A stretch of 27,858 nucleotides of DNA from an uncultured Candidatus Saccharibacteria bacterium (lineage in GTDB: Bacteria; Patescibacteriota; Minisyncoccia; JAHIHE01): NCBI GenBank assembly GCA_964552415.1, contig CAZKGJ010000002.1, positions 1-27,858 of the forward strand, given 5' to 3'. Each line of letters begins with the position of its first letter. The first letter of the stretch is position 1. The notes beneath the pieces are model-generated. The model saw nothing but the letters and a program-made list of their open reading frames with translations. It made no database searches and was not told where the DNA came from. The position numbers were made by a program, and so were the translations under genes. This document shows, piece by piece, positions 2,872-16,680 of the stretch.

Positions 2872-3624
2872 ATGGAAAATCAATTCGGCTCGTTAAACAG
2901 CAACGACATCTATCTTTCCGTCATTATTCCGGTTTATAACGAAGAAAAAAGGATCGGCCGCACCCTTGAAGCAATTGATAAATTCCTGCACAATAAAAAT
3001 TATTCGTATGAAATTATTGTTATGGAAGCAGGAAGTTCTGACAAGACAGCTGAAGTAGTGCGAAATTATATGAAAACCATTCCGAATTTACGTCTGCGAA
3101 AAGCGCAAAGCGGAATCTTCAAAGGAAACAAAATAAAAGAAGGTATGCTTGTGGCAAAAGGCAGATATCGTCTGTTTACCGATGCTGATAATGCCACACC
3201 GATTGAAGAAGTGGAAAAACTTCTGCCGTTTTTCAATCGGGGATACGAAGTGGTTATCGGCTCCAGGGCAGTTGACAGGTCAACGATAAAAGTTCATCAG
3301 CCCTTTTACCGCGAGTTTTTGGGTCGGGTTGGTAATATGCTTATACAATCTCTGGCGGTGCCGGGTATAAAAGACACCCAGTGCGGGTTCAAATGTTTTA
3401 CTGCAAAGGCCGCTGAAGATATTTTTTCCAAGCTTACTATTATGGGCTGGGGTTTTGACATAGAAGTTTTGGTTTTGGCAAATCTTAAAAAATACAAGAT
3501 AAAAGAAGTGCCAGTAATTTGGATAAACGACCCGAATTCAACCGTCTCTGCCGGCGCTTACTTCACCACCTTATGGGAACTTTTTAAAATCAAAATTAAT
3601 CTGATTACAAAAAAATATGGCTAA
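2872..3624 (+). CDS. Glycosyltransferase family 2 (dolichyl-phosphate beta-glucosyltransferase-like)
   Basis: SVIIPVYNEEKRI, FTDAD, VIGSR, DTQCGFK and GWGFDIE motifs. ATG 2872 preferred over TTG 2860. Confidence 0.9.
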   Translation: MENQFGSLNSNDIYLSVIIPVYNEEKRIGRTLEAIDKFLHNKNYSYEIIVMEAGSSDKTAEVVRNYMKTIPNLRLRKAQSGIFKGNKIKEGMLVAKGRYRLFTDADNATPIEEVEKLLPFFNRGYEVVIGSRAVDRSTIKVHQPFYREFLGRVGNMLIQSLAVPGIKDTQCGFKCFTAKAAEDIFSKLTIMGWGFDIEVLVLANLKKYKIKEVPVIWINDPNSTVSAGAYFTTLWELFKIKINLITKKYG

Positions 3625-13848: not shown

Positions 13849-14709
13849 ATGATTGCACAAGCTAAAATTTATCCATGGGCAAAAAAATCCGAATTTGACA
13901 TTGGCAATTTAAAACTACAAAAAGGAAATTATATTATCGTAAAAGACGCTGATGATCGAGAAGGCGATATAGAAGCGATTGAGATACTTGCCGTTAGAGA
14001 AAAAACTTCCGCTGAAAATGCGAGGCCGATTATAAAAATCGCCAACGCTTCCGATATTGAACGAATAAAACAATACAGCATAAAAAAATCTGAGGTATTG
14101 AATTTTATAAAAAGTAAAGTGAGGAGCGGTAATATTAAAATTAAAATTATAGACATACAATTCAGTTTTGACAGTTCGCGGATAAATGTAGCTTTTACCG
14201 CAGCGCAGAGGGTGGATTTCAGAGAACTGGTAAAAGATATTTCAAGGCATTTTCAAAAGTCAATAAAAATGATTCAGGTCGGCGTTCGGGACAGTGCGAG
14301 AAATTTCGGAGGAATCGGTGTATGCGGAAGGTGTTTGTGCTGCGCCAGCTTTTTGAAAAAACTTGAAAGCGTGACTATAAGCGACGCCAAATCTCAACGG
14401 CTGGACAGCAGATCGGCAAGCCGTCTCAGCGGCGTATGCGGTCGTCTTAAATGCTGTATGGCATACGAGGCCAAGTTGTATAACGAGCTGAGTAAAAGCT
14501 TACCCGAAATTGGGCGAGAGGTAATCACGCCGCGTGGAGAAGGCGAAGTTGTGGACTTGGATATTTTATCTCGCAGGGTAAAAGTGCGGCTGGCAGACAA
14601 AACCTCCACCCTTTTTAACTTCGGGAATATAAAATTAATCAGCCGTAATGCGGGGCTGATAAAAAAAGTTAATACGAAATCCATTGTTAGTATTCGCAAG
14701 AATTTCTAA
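13849..14709 (+). CDS. PSP1-domain / stage 0 sporulation YaaT (RicT) family protein
   Basis: RVDFRELVKD, GGIGVCGRCLCC and SGVCGRLKCCMAYE motifs. Confidence 0.88.
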   Translation: MIAQAKIYPWAKKSEFDIGNLKLQKGNYIIVKDADDREGDIEAIEILAVREKTSAENARPIIKIANASDIERIKQYSIKKSEVLNFIKSKVRSGNIKIKIIDIQFSFDSSRINVAFTAAQRVDFRELVKDISRHFQKSIKMIQVGVRDSARNFGGIGVCGRCLCCASFLKKLESVTISDAKSQRLDSRSASRLSGVCGRLKCCMAYEAKLYNELSKSLPEIGREVITPRGEGEVVDLDILSRRVKVRLADKTSTLFNFGNIKLISRNAGLIKKVNTKSIVSIRKNF

Positions 14710-14725
14710 TGTGGCTTGTAAATTT

Positions 14726-15244
14726 ATGAGTTACGACGCCGTCTTATCAACCTTGATTATTCTTTCGTTTTCTGGCATAATTATAACCTTAGTTAGAAAA
14801 ATTCCCGAAGTTTCTTTAGAATATCAGCAGAACAAAGCATTGTACGATACTATAGCCGATAAAAGCGGAAAACTTTCAAGGGCGGAAAATTTGTTTCGTT
14901 TTGTCCTAGTAAGACTTGAGAAGCTCTTGCGCCAGATAAGAATATACATCTTGAAACTGGATGGAAAAACATTCGGATGGATTCAATATTTGCGCAAAAG
15001 ATCTTTGGAAATTACTTACAATGCCAATAAAATTCCGCTGAAATTGCATTTTAAAATAGAAGAAGGCAGGATTTTAAATATACTTGCCAAAAATCCTAAG
15101 AACCCAGAAAATTACAAAAAATTGGGATTATTGTATCTTCAAAGCAAAAATTTTAAAGATGCCAGCGAAGCGCTGAAAGAATACCTGAAACTGAATCCAT
15201 ATGACAAAGAGATTAAAAAAATCTTAAAAGAAATGCCGACTTAG
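14726..15244 (+). CDS. Membrane-anchored TPR-like protein
   Basis: N-terminal TM segment and a C-terminal TPR-like NPKNPENYKKLGLLY...A...L.LNP. ATG 14726 preferred. The stop codon overlaps the split tRNA shell. Confidence 0.7.
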   Translation: MSYDAVLSTLIILSFSGIIITLVRKIPEVSLEYQQNKALYDTIADKSGKLSRAENLFRFVLVRLEKLLRQIRIYILKLDGKTFGWIQYLRKRSLEITYNANKIPLKLHFKIEEGRILNILAKNPKNPENYKKLGLLYLQSKNFKDASEALKEYLKLNPYDKEIKKILKEMPT

Positions 15245-15418
15245 CTCAATGGCAGAGCAACTTTTTTGCGACGGCCCCGCACCTTTTACGCCACCTTAGC
15301 TCAGGGGCAGAGCAACTGTTTTGTAAACAGTAGGTCCTCGGTCCGAATCCGAGAGGTGGCTCTCACTAAAAAGTGTGGGGTAAATAAATCGTCGGTTCAA
15401 GTCCGACAGTCGGCTCCA
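15235..15418 (+). pseudogene. Split tRNA-Thr-like shell interrupted at the anticodon by a ~100-110-nt insert
   Basis: Acceptor GCCGACT (15235-41)/AGTCGGC (15408-14) plus TCCA, D arm GCTC/GAGC, and T arm GTCGG-TTCAAGT-CCGAC are all perfect. The anticodon region is interrupted after 15268. Confidence 0.7.
15290..15361 (+). tRNA. tRNA-Thr(TGT), nested
   Basis: Full cloverleaf GCCACCT/AGGTGGC with ACTGT-TT-TGT-AA-ACAGT. T loop is TCCGAAT (C55 variant). No encoded CCA. Confidence 0.9.
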
Positions 15419-15419
15419 C

Positions 15420-15503
15420 GGGCGGATACCGAAGTAGTCAAACGGGGCAGACTGTAAATCTGTTGGCCTCCGGCCTTCGAAGGTGCAAATCCTTCTCCGC
15501 CCA
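15420..15503 (+). tRNA. tRNA-Tyr(GTA)
   Basis: GGGCGGA/TCCGCCC acceptor, GCAGA-CT-GTA-AA-TCTGT anticodon arm, long variable arm. Confidence 0.93.
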
Positions 15504-15512
15504 CATAAATAC

Positions 15513-15585
15513 GCCGTTATAGCTCAGTTGGCAGAGCAACTCCATGGTAAGGAGTAGGTCCGCGGTTCAAATCCGCGTAACGGCT
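15513..15585 (+). tRNA. tRNA-Thr(GGT)
   Basis: GCCGTTA/TAACGGC acceptor, ACTCC-AT-GGT-AA-GGAGT anticodon arm, T arm CGCGG-TTCAAAT-CCGCG. Confidence 0.95.
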
Positions 15586-15615
15586 CAGATAATTTTAACA
15601 ATATTTCAAAATAAT

Positions 15616-15771
15616 ATGTCGCAAGAAAGATTAACAAAACTGCAGTGTACGGCATGCAAAAAAATCAATTATCTTACTTTTAAAAGCAAAGGTGCTGCGA
15701 AAGACAAGATGGAAATTATCAAATTTTGCAAATCGTGCCGTAAACATACGCCACACAAAGAATCAAAATAA
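15616..15771 (+). CDS. rpmG: 50S ribosomal protein L33 (Zn-binding type)
   Basis: LQCTACKKINY, KFCKSCRKHTPHKE. True start is 15616; the longer ORF in the track overlaps a tRNA. Confidence 0.95.
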   Translation: MSQERLTKLQCTACKKINYLTFKSKGAAKDKMEIIKFCKSCRKHTPHKESK

Positions 15772-15777
15772 AGACGT

Positions 15778-15945
15778 AGGAGCGTAATTCAGTGGCAGAA
15801 TGACAGTCTTTCTACATGCCACAGCATAGGGCCTTGATGTCAATGGCAGCATGGCAGTCTCCAAAACTGCTCGTAGAGGTTCGAATCCTCTAGGCCCTGC
15901 AATGCGACGGGCAGGCAAAACCGGATACGGGGGTCAGTATCTTTT
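15778..15945 (+). pseudogene. Split, decayed tRNA-Trp-like shell interrupted at the anticodon
   Basis: 5' half AGGAGCG-TA-ATTC-AGTGGCA-GAAT-G-ACAGT-CT (15778-15809). 3' remnant CA-AA-ACCGG-ATAC-GGGGG-TCAGTAT-CTTTT from 15916. The 3' acceptor strand is not recognisable. Confidence 0.55.
15828..15899 (+). tRNA. tRNA-Trp(CCA), nested
   Basis: AGGGCCT/AGGCCCT acceptor, GCAGT-CT-CCA-AA-ACTGC anticodon arm, T arm AGAGG-TTCGAAT-CCTCT. Confidence 0.93.
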
Positions 15946-15960
15946 ATTATTGCAATAATA

Positions 15961-16680
15961 ATGATAAAAATGATAAAAAAAAACCCAAATCATATTGTGT
16001 TTATTATGGACGGCAACAGAAGATGGGCAGCAAGCCATCTTTTGGAATCTTATAATGGACACGAAAAAGGCGCGCTGGTTGTAAAAGAAATGATTAACGA
16101 GGCGGTAAATCTAAAAATTCACTGCTTTTCTTTCTGGGGTTCTTCACTAGACAATATTGTTAAACGTCCAAAGGCAGAAGTGGCATATCTGTTTAAACTG
16201 TTCAGGAAAAAATTTGACGAATTGGCAGAAGACAAAGAAATTCATAATAATCAGATAAAAGTAAACGTGCTGGGGAGGTGGAACGTTCTATTCCCCATTG
16301 AGACAAAAAGCGCGATTCAAAAGGCGATAGACGCAACCAAAAATTACGGCAAATTTTATTTAAACTTTTTGCTTGCTTACAGCGGTAAAGACGAAATGGA
16401 AAGCGCGATTAAGGACATAGTGGATCACGCAAGGGAAAACACTGATTTAAAAATAAATTCTTCTTTAATCAAAAACCATCTTTTTACCAAAGACCTGCCA
16501 CCGGTTGATTATCTCATCCGCACTGGCGGTAACCCCCACCTCTCAACAGGATTTATGATGTGGGATGTTGCCGACGCGCAGTTATATTTTTCCGAAAAGC
16601 TTTGGCCCGATTTCACCCGAGAAGATTTTAGAAAAGCGATTACTGATTACGGTAAGCGGAGAAGAAAATTCGGAGCATAG
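15961..16680 (+). CDS. uppS: Undecaprenyl diphosphate synthase (cis-prenyltransferase)
   Basis: HIVFIMDGNRRWA, YSGKDE, VDYLIRTGG and LWPDF motifs. Confidence 0.94.
   Translation: MIKMIKKNPNHIVFIMDGNRRWAASHLLESYNGHEKGALVVKEMINEAVNLKIHCFSFWGSSLDNIVKRPKAEVAYLFKLFRKKFDELAEDKEIHNNQIKVNVLGRWNVLFPIETKSAIQKAIDATKNYGKFYLNFLLAYSGKDEMESAIKDIVDHARENTDLKINSSLIKNHLFTKDLPPVDYLIRTGGNPHLSTGFMMWDVADAQLYFSEKLWPDFTREDFRKAITDYGKRRRKFGA

Follow-up and report, generated by a model that had tools for sequence, protein, structure and literature searches.

Complete tRNA genes nested within interrupted tRNA genes of the same isotype in a Candidatus Saccharibacteria genome

Anatomy of two nested tRNA loci

The window, by which we mean the whole 27,858-nt stretch of DNA analyzed, comes from an uncultured Candidatus Saccharibacteria bacterium (genome G000 in our numbering). 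At two places in it, a complete tRNA gene lies inside the remains of an older tRNA gene of the same isotype. The older tRNA-Thr gene is interrupted after anticodon base 35 (Thr locus, 15235-15418), and the older tRNA-Trp gene after base 33 (Trp locus, 15778-15941). We call the interrupted gene the shell, the intact tRNA gene within it the cargo, and the insert the cassette. The features on which the original prediction was built, namely the two inserts, their sizes, the same-isotype cargo, the repeats and a shared 8-mer, are all present where it had placed them, as assessed by ARAGORN, Rfam and alignment. The loci are composed as follows.

14684..15244, + strand: upstream ORF of 186 aa (ORF list and sequence reading)
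15235..15268, + strand: 5' part of the old tRNA-Thr shell, with acceptor GCCGACU, D arm, 5' strand of the anticodon stem and loop bases 32-35, ending UUUG
15269..15274, + strand: junction filler CGACGG, which with 15267-68 makes the 8-mer TGCGACGG
15275..15288, + strand: left inverted repeat of a type-A cassette, CCCCGCACCTTTTA (repeat-pair search)
15290..15362, + strand: cargo, a complete tRNA-Thr(UGU) (ARAGORN and Rfam, 65.3 bits)
15367..15385, + strand: right inverted repeat TAAAAAGTGTGGGG (15367-15380) and tail TAAAT (15381-15385) (repeat-pair search)
15386..15418, + strand: 3' part of the old tRNA-Thr shell, with variable-loop remnant, T arm (15391-15407), acceptor 3' strand, U73 and CCA
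15778..15809, + strand: 5' half of the old tRNA-Trp shell, up to U33 (full-length alignment with the 5' half of the intact tRNA-Trp of G001)
15810..15827, + strand: left flank of the Trp cassette, a decayed left repeat (comparison by eye with type-B repeats)
15828..15900, + strand: cargo, a complete tRNA-Trp(CCA) (ARAGORN and Rfam, 40.1 bits)
15901..15915, + strand: right-hand flank of the Trp cassette; the type-B right repeat GACGGGCAGG occupies 15906-15915 (16-mer search in class genomes)
15916..15941, + strand: what is left, in decayed form, of the 3' side of the old tRNA-Trp; it starts at anticodon base 35 and now forms a hairpin with a T run after it (comparison with the 3' half of G001)

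The outer tRNAs were not called by the intron mode of ARAGORN, even with lowered thresholds, and the old tRNA-Thr was then detected by brute-force deletion combined with ARAGORN: when the middle of the locus was removed in silico, a tRNA was called in 384 of 1554 deletion variants. The acceptor pair of this shell, GCCGACT/AGTCGGC, is that of the intact tRNA-Thr(UGU) in relatives of the same order, and its acceptor, D and T stems are still perfect. The insert measures ∼117 nt (15269-15385). The inverted repeats, predicted to be short at both inserts, amount to a real 14 bp at the Thr locus (15275-15288 against 15367-15380, 12/14 complementary) but are weak at the Trp locus (∼9/14). The cargo is the sole tRNA-Thr(UGU) of the assembly. 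We note that the TAG stop of the upstream ORF (15242-15244) lies, together with its final codons, within the 5' end of the old tRNA-Thr; the same overlap is present in the congeneric genome G001 and in the distant G099, and it may help retention of that end of the shell.

The Trp insert is 106 nt long (15810-15915), and its cargo is the single tRNA-Trp in the assembly. The shell and the intact tRNA-Trp of G001 are orthologs, with the same position between the L33 gene and uppS. The 3' half of the shell has decayed: the T stem and acceptor strand are gone, and what is left at 15916-15934 matches the G001 3' half at 15 of 19 positions. None of 2000 shuffles reached this score, although three further sites of the window, including the cargo tRNA-Trp itself, equal it. 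A parallel case with a well-kept 3' half, Trp in Trp, is found in G068 (L172). An Rfam scan of 14900-16300 with E values up to 10 returned four tRNAs and chance-level matches only, with no intron model.

The host genome was binned from a metagenome and is fragmented; its contigs overlap with k = 55, strain bubbles are present, and several contigs end within tRNA genes, as might be expected were the nested loci chimeras of strain variants of the tRNA cluster created in assembly or binning. Against this, contigs assembled separately from three runs span every junction in the window with no differences and at even depth, although the runs derive from one source sample and are thus not independent samples. 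A variant strain in run X3, with two SNPs upstream, has the same left junction, and homologous nested Thr loci occur in G001 and G099, each assembled separately. The nested arrangement is real, and an artefact is refuted for practical purposes; we give it next to no weight. The outcome under which the original prediction would have been abandoned, a pattern absent elsewhere and traceable to misassembly, is not what we find.

Intact sites, cargo origin and shell decay

Close relatives contain filled and empty alleles at one and the same site for Trp, Arg(UCU) and Thr. The tRNA-Trp gene is intact ("empty") in G001, G002 and G003 and filled in G000. The tRNA-Thr gene is intact in G002 and ∼15 relatives of the order, seven of which have the acceptor stem of the window shell. 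The reverse case is provided by tRNA-Arg(UCU), which is intact in G000 and orthologous to an interrupted gene in G001. For Ser(UGA), both alleles lie on one branch of the G000 assembly graph: contig C55 holds the old Ser 5' half followed by a cassette, contig C96 holds the intact old tRNA-Ser, and the two have exactly one 55-mer in common (C55:1-55 and C96:125-179), which we read as probable population variation. A metagenome scan with the downstream UppS protein gave 59 loci, all non-syntenic and with identities no higher than 57%, and these tell nothing about the tRNA cluster.

The Thr cargo is identical at 70 of 73 positions (96%) to the resident tRNA-Thr of G035, a genome of a different family, and its differences from its own shell are compensated stem changes. 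Judged by these alignments, the Thr cargo is of foreign origin. For the Trp cargo, neither the 32 genomes of the order nor the 401 of the class yielded a donor; the best matches are 80-84% identical over ∼50-60 nt of tRNA. Across the 28 same-anticodon tRNA pairs of G000 and G001, 12 are at least 92% identical and 10 are at most 78% identical. The Thr cassettes of these two genomes are 78% identical and the neighboring DNA 71-81%, so old vertical inheritance fits as well as separate arrivals. The right junction lacks the same 3 nt in G000, G001 and G099, and so could stem from one ancient event that was later lost in many lineages.

These data also bear on a simpler history, in which local tandem duplication of tRNA-Thr and tRNA-Trp was followed by deletion to half copies with no mobile element. 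Partial tRNA copies beside intact ones are indeed common in these genomes, and Pro(GGG) of G001 is a 19-nt exact repeat of a tRNA 3' end. However, the compensated stem changes indicate that cargo and shell each evolved as a working tRNA in different lineages, the Thr cargo is a near match to the tRNA of another family, relatives have one intact gene at the site, and the junctions fall in loops and bear conserved inverted repeats found in 80 of 401 genomes. Duplication is already disfavored, and we regard it as very improbable.

The shells themselves show decay. Those of Thr and Arg in G001 have broken pairs and extra insertions, and in the window the Trp 3' remnant is decayed. Once the hairpin is removed, the anticodon stem of the Thr shell is 3 nt short in each of G000, G001 and G099. 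The perfect stems of the window Thr shell would not be expected of an old pseudogene and count against the reading of these loci as mobile cassettes.

Cassette families and candidate enzymes

The two inserts belong to different repeat families, the Thr cassette to type A and the Trp cassette to type B. The original prediction had proposed testing ccccgcac/gtgtgggg for enrichment at nested tRNA junctions. The type-A pair CCCCRCAC...GTGYGGGG is present in 80 of 401 class genomes, compared with ∼5 for the reversed control pattern. G000 has one such pair, and some class genomes have 10-17. Between them the repeats enclose tRNAs (13 of the 31 copies examined), noncoding DNA, or a gene for a GIY-YIG nuclease of ∼85 aa. 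In other copies they are perfect up to 17 bp, and many of the 31 copies listed are followed by a tail, (G)T[AG]AA. The type-B end (a 16-mer with tail) occurs at 15 sites in 13 of the 401 genomes, with no hit for its control. A TCCGCC-loop-GGCGGA hairpin common to the Ser and Glu cassettes was discarded as a cassette marker, being a general motif of G000 (at least nine copies, most of them in a 5' leader immediately before the start codon), and the CRISPR repeat of G000 proved unrelated to the cassette repeats.

Type-A repeats are found in the D, anticodon and T loops of tRNA genes with the same anticodon as the cargo, and also outside tRNA genes. The anticodon is therefore a frequent insertion point, as predicted, but not the exclusive one. 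Further nested cases occur in G000 itself (Ser and Glu), in G001 (Thr twice, Arg and Val), and elsewhere in the class, among the 401 genomes. In L174 and L182, both Thr in Thr, the insertion lies exactly between bases 35 and 36 without loss of target. Wherever a D- or T-loop insertion leaves the shell anticodon readable, it equals that of the cargo (five of five: Arg(UCU) and Val(CAC) of G001, L110, L114 and L129), as it does in the Ser(UGA) allele pair, and shell and cargo have the same orientation in every case with both identified. These findings support the central claim of the original prediction, that in this lineage tRNA alleles are swapped by a recurrent DNA-level process with palindromic ends, which places a complete tRNA of matching anticodon in the anticodon loop of the resident gene. 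The window junctions show no target-site duplication, so that classical transposition is not indicated, and L174 and L182, the clean cases, show none either. Some of the non-tRNA copies are bordered by repeated GTAAAC or CAAAAC.

The shared 8-mer fared less well. It is present at both inserts (15267-15274 at the Thr junction and 15903-15910 in the Trp insert), but genome-wide it is not enriched, with 10 copies against ∼8 expected. Because the inserts come from two different families, it is not a common end sequence. A disabled tRNA-Ser(GCT) next to a GIY-YIG gene has a third copy, which is part of a palindrome in its D loop (G000:C1:27476-27491), and that site and the Trp flank have 10 nt in common, ATGCGACGGG. 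With the two defining copies set aside, one of eight copies is near a tRNA (p ∼0.15), which is not significant alone, and the match between the Thr and Trp inserts is suggestive only.

The distribution of the hairpins speaks to two further explanations. The original prediction had offered scars of anticodon nucleases as an example of the process. Anticodon nucleases cut RNA, and the same hairpins occur in D and T loops too, as well as around protein genes and at sites outside tRNA genes, so this proposal is unsupported. Alternatively, the insert could act at the RNA level, as an intron-like or processing device whose hairpin is cut in the transcript, freeing the cargo, and whose shell halves, by rejoining or by staying paired, form another functional tRNA or a processing scaffold. 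Consistent with such a device, the 185-nt Thr region folds as a cloverleaf within a cloverleaf around a 9+5 bp hairpin (-70 kcal/mol, z = -4.2), the stems of the Thr shell are perfect, one repeat mismatch is G-U-compatible on the tRNA strand, several loop positions are used as in archaeal tRNA introns, and the 0.71-Mb genome encodes the RNA ligase RtcB. In another copy, however, it is only the opposite strand that is compatible with the repeat mismatch, and the hairpins also surround protein genes and noncoding DNA. The archaeal splicing endonuclease EndA (PF01974) was not found in G000 (92% complete), while the control was positive in four archaea. With 3 nt of the anticodon stem missing, joining the Thr halves would not give a normal tRNA; the Trp shell lacks the T stem and acceptor strand, and the G001 shells have broken pairs and further insertions. 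Two apparent signs of a spliced shell were rejected. The pairing of ACTTT (15260-64) with AAAGT (15370-74) as an anticodon stem is not conserved in G001 and derives from the AT-rich inner part of the repeat, and covariation at 27-43 vanished once the shared 3-nt deficit was recognized. On balance we consider an RNA-level device improbable.

The Y1/REP transposases and integrases named in the original prediction are not borne out. The Y1/REP (RAYT) family PF01797 is absent from G000, G001, G068, G202 and G086, three of which are the most element-rich and are 100% complete, while the control search detected it in 6 genomes out of 14. Crossing over by tyrosine integrases is common in the anticodon or T loop of tRNA genes and restores the gene, and on contig C104 a tyrosine recombinase gene adjoins a tRNA-Leu fragment; these facts would suit inserts that are remains of integrase-mediated islands or prophages, placed at the anticodon loop and then almost fully deleted. 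Integration of that sort should give hybrid tRNAs, with part of the tRNA directly repeated, rather than a complete foreign tRNA within inverted repeats, and no direct repeat of this kind is present at either insert, each of which is merely 106-117 nt. Moreover, each of five genomes has one strong chromosomal-type match to tyrosine recombinases, and two have a weaker second; this count of one or two is constant whether a genome contains 10, 14 or 17 type-A pairs. No integrase is linked to the cassettes, and the sole tyrosine recombinase of G000 is on another contig. We hold this origin to be highly unlikely.

One enzyme is physically associated with the hairpins. Type-A repeats exactly enclose a mini GIY-YIG ORF in L149, L150 and L156, and the left repeat of the window Thr cassette is identical over 14 nt to that of a GIY-YIG-bearing cassette in G086. 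The predicted protein, of ∼85 aa, matches the GIY-YIG catalytic domain only. Genes for tRNA or tmRNA lie within ∼160 nt at 9 of the 20 GIY-YIG loci examined (eight called by ARAGORN, and tRNA-Ser of G000 recognized by eye); in G000, two tRNA-Ser(GCU) genes, one palindrome-disabled and the other intact, flank an 86-aa GIY-YIG gene (G000:C1:27723-27983). Mini GIY-YIG genes are similarly frequent in five genomes without type-A pairs (1-8 each) and in five genomes with many (3-8 each), so there is no simple correlation of copy number in this comparison of five genomes with five. Neither cassette of the window has a nuclease gene inside or near it or an enzyme tied to it, and the link between the putative nuclease and the cassettes is a physical one only.

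Proposed mechanism and comparison with known systems

The anatomy of the loci, the intact sites in relatives, the foreign Thr cargo, a family with a range of cargo and the decay of shells are the established elements of our account. We think it probable that both loci are scars of small palindrome-ended DNA cassettes that broke the resident tRNA gene and supplied its replacement. Each cassette, of ∼105-120 bp, would consist of a GC-rich inverted repeat (hairpin) whose tip is a complete tRNA gene, inserted at the DNA level into the resident gene, between bases 35 and 36 of tRNA-Thr(UGU) in one case and past base 33 of tRNA-Trp in the other. The shell, having lost its anticodon loop and not being restored, would be dead, and the cell would depend on the cargo, oriented as the shell is. 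No better promoter match was found for the cargo, so the simplest reading is transcription from the upstream signals of the old gene through its 5' half; the normal enzymes of tRNA-end processing would then free the cargo from the transcript. Families of such cassettes, spread in this class of very small genomes, would land in the hairpin loops (D, anticodon, T) of tRNA genes and elsewhere, and could persist in a single-copy essential tRNA gene only by bringing the same tRNA.

Movement of the cassettes between genomes, we infer, is by homing-like repair (cut and copy) and not by transposition. It is possible, but clearly less likely than not, that the cut is made by the ∼85-aa GIY-YIG nuclease sometimes carried by the same hairpins. 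More tentative still is the full scheme of a non-autonomous homing system, in which the catalytic-domain-only GIY-YIG protein would cut the hairpin tips of tRNA genes (D, anticodon, T), repair would copy the filled allele, and the element would bear, in place of a self-splicing intron, a spare of the very tRNA it disrupts.

On our best reading, the cassettes drive frequent replacement of tRNAs by foreign copies. Few genes are as conserved and essential as those for tRNAs, most of which are single-copy in these sub-megabase genomes; the evidence points to their repeated overwriting by copies from other lineages, with nested dead shells left behind. On this reading it is a widespread and apparently undescribed mode of overwriting essential tRNA genes: a full-text literature search, whose reach took in few subscription journals, gave no account of one tRNA gene lying within another in bacteria. 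tRNA sequences would accordingly be poor vertical markers in these bacteria. Overwriting would account for partial tRNA matches and for contig breaks at tRNA genes in metagenome bins, and broken tRNA halves are open to misreading as intron-containing or split tRNAs. If a nuclease drives the process, it offers a simple model of a selfish element that spares its host by carrying the spare part, and a function for the very common stand-alone GIY-YIG (UPF0213-type) proteins. If the homing reading is true, it adds a third route, beside introns and att-site duplication, by which selfish DNA can live in an essential RNA gene, and an engine of frequent foreign tRNA replacement in ultrasmall genomes. 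Might tRNA turnover itself be selected, for example as an escape from tRNA-targeting toxins?

Several known systems resemble these loci in part. Group I introns of bacterial tRNA genes, as in tRNA-Leu(UAA) and tRNA-fMet, are ribozymes of at least 200 nt that splice themselves and restore the host tRNA. They likewise sit in the anticodon loop of tRNA genes with a patchy distribution among relatives, whereas the insert here is a tRNA and a hairpin of 106-117 nt, with no Rfam intron, and the host gene is replaced, not restored: on removal of the insert, the Thr shell lacks 3 nt, and the Trp shell lacks the T stem and acceptor 3' strand. Tyrosine-recombinase integrative elements that target tRNA genes also land in anticodon or T loops and maintain the tRNA supply of the cell, but they span kilobases, bring their own integrase and provide only the displaced part of the tRNA via att duplication; here a whole tRNA is contained in ∼110 bp with no linked integrase. 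REPIN/RAYT, IS200/IS605 and miniature inverted-repeat elements are similarly gene-less hairpin units of ∼100 nt that form related families; they occur in many copies, as type-A pairs do in some class genomes but not in G000, which has one. By the measure of the miniature elements, terminal inverted repeats are present here and a fixed-length target-site duplication is not; unlike REPIN/RAYT and IS200/IS605, these cassettes are accompanied by no Y1/RAYT gene (five genomes) and no target duplication at tRNA sites, and their cargo is a functional tRNA gene matched to the interrupted one.

Archaeal introns at noncanonical tRNA positions and split tRNAs (Fujishima et al. 2010, Kanai; cited in PMC10714607) are alike in their insertion into D, anticodon and T loops, as mobile units and in the helices formed by their flanks. 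They differ in needing the splicing endonuclease (not found in G000), in yielding a functional host tRNA and in carrying no tRNA. By eye, the window junctions form a long perfect helix without the 3-4-3 bulge-helix-bulge pattern. The GC clusters and double-hairpin elements of fungal mitochondria are short, GC-rich, palindromic mobile DNAs (PMC4478555), which, like our cassettes, are palindromes in AT-rich compact genomes without a known dedicated transposase; they are organellar and are not reported with a replacement for the interrupted gene.

A further parallel is SegB, a free-standing, site-specific GIY-YIG homing endonuclease encoded in the tRNA gene cluster of phage T4; by cutting a relative's tRNA region, it brings about the inheritance of its own region through nonreciprocal copying (PMC2330249). 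In both settings a GIY-YIG gene lies among tRNA genes and tRNA alleles are replaced without an intron. The candidate nuclease here differs from the phage enzyme in being ∼85 aa long, matching the GIY-YIG catalytic domain only, and its activity is putative. The elements of these bacteria, moreover, are wrapped in inverted repeats, the window cassettes lack a nuclease gene, and the old gene is kept as two halves around the new one.

Two interrupted tRNA genes and their assembly

The window is contig C2 of G000, a 0.71-Mb metagenome bin from mine-drainage samples (109 contigs, 92% complete, 40.7% G+C). Its small genome and its habitat agree with the ultra-small CPR/Patescibacteria. The conserved bacterial tRNA cluster in the window has the order upstream ORF, tRNA-Thr(UGU), tRNA-Tyr, tRNA-Thr(GGU), L33 gene, tRNA-Trp, and uppS. 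In the relative G002, the spacer between tRNA-Thr(UGU) and tRNA-Tyr is zero (L003:1456-1613). Two of the window genes consist of an old, interrupted tRNA gene (the shell) and a complete tRNA gene within the insert (the cargo):

15235-15268, Thr shell, 5' part: acceptor 5' strand, perfect D arm, anticodon-stem 5' strand, and loop bases 32-35
15275-15288 and 15367-15380, 14-bp inverted repeat around the Thr cargo, complementary at 12 of 14 positions
15290-15362, Thr cargo, a normal tRNA-Thr(UGU) by ARAGORN and Rfam
15386-15418, Thr shell, 3' part: variable-loop remnant, perfect T arm, matching acceptor 3' strand, U73, and CCA
15778-15809, Trp shell, 5' half up to U33, aligned over its full length to the 5' half of the intact tRNA-Trp of G001, a sister species in the same genus
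15810-15915, Trp insert, 106 nt
15828-15900, Trp cargo, a different complete tRNA-Trp(CCA)
15916-15934, Trp shell, 3' remnant, matching the G001 tRNA-Trp 3' half at 15 of 19 bases

The nested loci are not an artefact. Per-run contigs from three runs of one source sample span 15000-15335, 15313-15559, and 15546-16168 with no differences and jointly bridge all junctions, a variant strain has an identical left junction, and homologous nested Thr loci occur in the separately assembled G001 and G099 (a distant genome). The two same-isotype inserts of the original prediction are thus real.

The Thr shell is interrupted 3' of G35, and the full 185-nt locus folds as a cloverleaf within a cloverleaf (z = -4.2). 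Of 1554 variants with its middle deleted in silico, 384 gave a tRNA call by ARAGORN. The still-perfect stems of this shell speak for insertion at a rather recent date or for a constraint; one constraint is visible in the stop codon of the upstream ORF, located within the shell 5' end in G000, G001, and G099. At the Trp locus the remainder of the old 3' half has decayed into a hairpin and a T run; the same layout is found at L172 in the class genome G068 with both old halves well kept.

Sharing of the 8-mer tgcgacgg by the Thr junction and the Trp insert had been offered as a possible junction signal, and genome-wide it is not enriched (10 copies, about 8 expected). At the Thr locus it consists of U34, G35, and six filler bases and adjoins the left repeat, and at the Trp locus it shares bases with the right repeat. 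On contig C1, a third copy makes up the right arm of a D-loop palindrome, with 10 nt common to the Trp flank. These positions hint, at a level that is statistically only suggestive, that parts of several palindromes are stacked at these junctions.

Probable replacement of tRNA genes at the DNA level

The Trp gene is single and intact at the same site in G001 and in the relatives G002 and G003; in G001 it lies in exactly the same place, with the L33 gene on one side and uppS on the other. The Thr gene is likewise single and intact in G002 and about 15 order relatives, seven of them with the acceptor stem of the window shell (GCCGACT/AGTCGGC), and the Thr site of G003 differs from both states: 16 nt of the old gene persist as a stump, together with a new tRNA-Thr. 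The Thr cargo is identical at 70 of 73 positions to the resident tRNA-Thr of G035, a genome of another family, and the stem changes that set it apart from its own shell are compensated; cargo and shell are therefore separate lineages and not a recent duplication. Among 28 same-anticodon tRNA pairs of G000 and G001, 12 are at least 92% identical and 10 are at most 78% identical, the bimodal pattern that frequent replacement by foreign copies would produce. We consider it likely that DNA cassettes (inserts with their repeats) break and replace tRNA genes. Full-text literature searches returned no published description of this layout.

The Thr cassettes of G000, G001, and the distant G099 have synteny and a 3-nt right-junction deficit in common, and those of G000 and G001 are 78% identical, no closer than the surrounding DNA. 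A single old insertion could have been retained in some lineages; alternatively, the whole filled (interrupted) allele could have spread by recombination, with its flanks copied along.

Further nested loci and two repeat families

A survey in which every G000 tRNA was searched against the genome revealed further cases. Contig C55 carries the first 36 nt of a tRNA-Ser(UGA), ending within the anticodon. GC-rich hairpins over 51 nt separate this 5' half from a second tRNA-Ser(UGA), which is complete and of different sequence, and on C96 the same 5' half continues into an intact tRNA. The two contigs have exactly one 55-mer in common, an assembly-graph branch, and therefore filled and empty alleles of this gene probably coexist. 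On C12, a Glu-type 5' half to base 34 precedes a complete tRNA-Glu(CUC); hairpins over about 100 nt then lead to a 3' fragment from base 35. At the end of C1, a tRNA-Ser(GCU) disabled by D-loop and T-loop palindromes precedes an 86-aa GIY-YIG gene and an intact tRNA-Ser(GCU). A strain bubble with no remnant was also seen: C48 and C85, which both join C35, share their context but differ in the tRNA-Arg(CCG) gene they carry.

The original prediction placed the insertion point in the anticodon, which holds for the window Thr and Trp genes and for Ser and Glu on C55 and C12, but D and T loops are targets too. In G001, the Thr shell holds two cargo tRNAs (D loop and anticodon loop), and the D loop of an old tRNA-Val(CAC) houses a cassette with a further tRNA-Val(CAC). 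Two loops of an old tRNA-Arg(UCU) are occupied there, the D loop by a hairpin without cargo and the T loop by a cassette bearing tRNA-Arg(UCU); this Arg shell has since lost base pairs, and its uninterrupted ortholog is kept in G000. For three Arg genes with T-loop inserts of the type-A family described below (L110, L114, L129), deletion of the element leads ARAGORN to call the outer tRNA with the same anticodon. With L172 and the loci L174 and L182 below, the nested layout recurs well outside the window. Shell and cargo are co-oriented wherever both were identified, and the proposed match of cargo to target extends to the anticodon wherever that of the shell is readable (five D-/T-loop cases and the Ser allele pair).

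Flanking inverted repeats had been described for both window inserts. That of the Thr cargo is clear and that of the Trp cargo weak (about 9/14); the two belong to different families. Type A, which encloses the Thr cargo, is CCCC[GA]CAC... paired with ...GTG[CT]GGGG, with (G)T[AG]AA as the usual tail. With 78-108 nt allowed between arms, type-A pairs were found in 80 of 401 class genomes vs about 5 for the reversed pattern, with 10-17 copies in some genomes. Thirteen of 31 copies examined hold a tRNA (ten different anticodons); in the other 18 the arms enclose DNA of other kinds, about 80-100 nt long. Some forms consist of the hairpin alone. Type B, in which CCTGCCCGCC or CCCGCCTGC pairs with GGCGGGCAGG or GGCAGGCGGG, matches the Trp right end, the C12 Glu left end, and D-loop inserts of G001 and G099. 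In the tRNA-Thr(UGU) genes at L174 and L182, a type-B cassette with tRNA-Thr separates base 35 from base 36 precisely, and no target base is missing. The Trp insert terminates in GACGGGCAGG and then CAAAAC, and this 16-mer has 15 sites in 13 of the 401 class genomes (0 for the reversed control).

Other repeats and hairpins were observed alongside. At 2803-2832 of the window, in a 5' leader, two GC-rich hairpins with perfect pairing adjoin each other after a promoter-like TATACT. At least nine TCCGCC-loop-GGCGGA hairpins occur in G000, mostly right upstream of start codons with the 3'-arm GGAG positioned like a ribosome-binding site; they may serve in regulation or mRNA stabilisation, or represent another small palindromic repeat family. 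Downstream of tRNA-Gln, about 100 nt are present as two inverted copies about 1.5 kb apart (G000:C61:1655-1760 and 3250-3350), beginning at the last tRNA-Gln bases and including a 12-bp-stem hairpin. A contig end (G000:C5:21552-22529) carries a CRISPR array whose 36-nt repeat, present at least 16 times, is unrelated to the cassette repeats. An odd tRNA-like gene upstream of tRNA-Pro(GGG) (L025:274-348 on G000:C6; L042:683-756 in G001; 87% identity) scores 35.8 bits to the tRNA model, and has no normal anticodon by ARAGORN; about 90 nt downstream of it are conserved as well.

Candidate enzymes and known mobile systems

The original prediction looked to Y1/REP-associated transposases or integrases. 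In five genomes, among them the three with the most elements, Y1/RAYT transposases are absent. Each of these five has one strong tyrosine-recombinase match, with a weaker second match in two, and genomes with more elements do not have more such matches. G000 has a single tyrosine recombinase (C104:1-671), with about 90 nt between it and the 3' end of a tRNA-Leu(UAG) that the contig end truncates; it could be either Xer or the integrase of an island. Separately, tRNA-Pro(GGG) of G001 (L042:1001-1185) has GC-rich hairpins over 94 nt downstream, and beyond them its 3' end is repeated exactly over 19 nt, an att-like direct repeat in contrast to the nested cases; in L041, one of these hairpins is found downstream of tRNA-Glu, oppositely oriented. 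No archaeal splicing endonuclease was found in G000, though a full-length RtcB RNA ligase (G000:C18:7807-9099, 566 bits) is retained despite the 0.71-Mb genome and could serve in repair of cleaved tRNAs.

At L149, L150, and L156, an 83-85-aa GIY-YIG ORF of the UPF0213 type (best solved relative 1ZG2) is bracketed exactly by a type-A repeat, which at L149 equals the window left repeat over 14 nt. A tRNA or tmRNA gene lies within about 160 nt at 9 of 20 GIY-YIG loci examined (eight by ARAGORN, the G000 tRNA-Ser locus by eye). Nuclease-driven homing, with GIY-YIG as the putative cutter, is a tentative reading that we place below even chances, because small GIY-YIG genes are equally frequent in genomes without type-A pairs and none lies near the two window cassettes. 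Insertions favour the loop tips of the three tRNA arms and those of hairpins in the elements themselves, which may reflect recognition of DNA in hairpin or cruciform shape.
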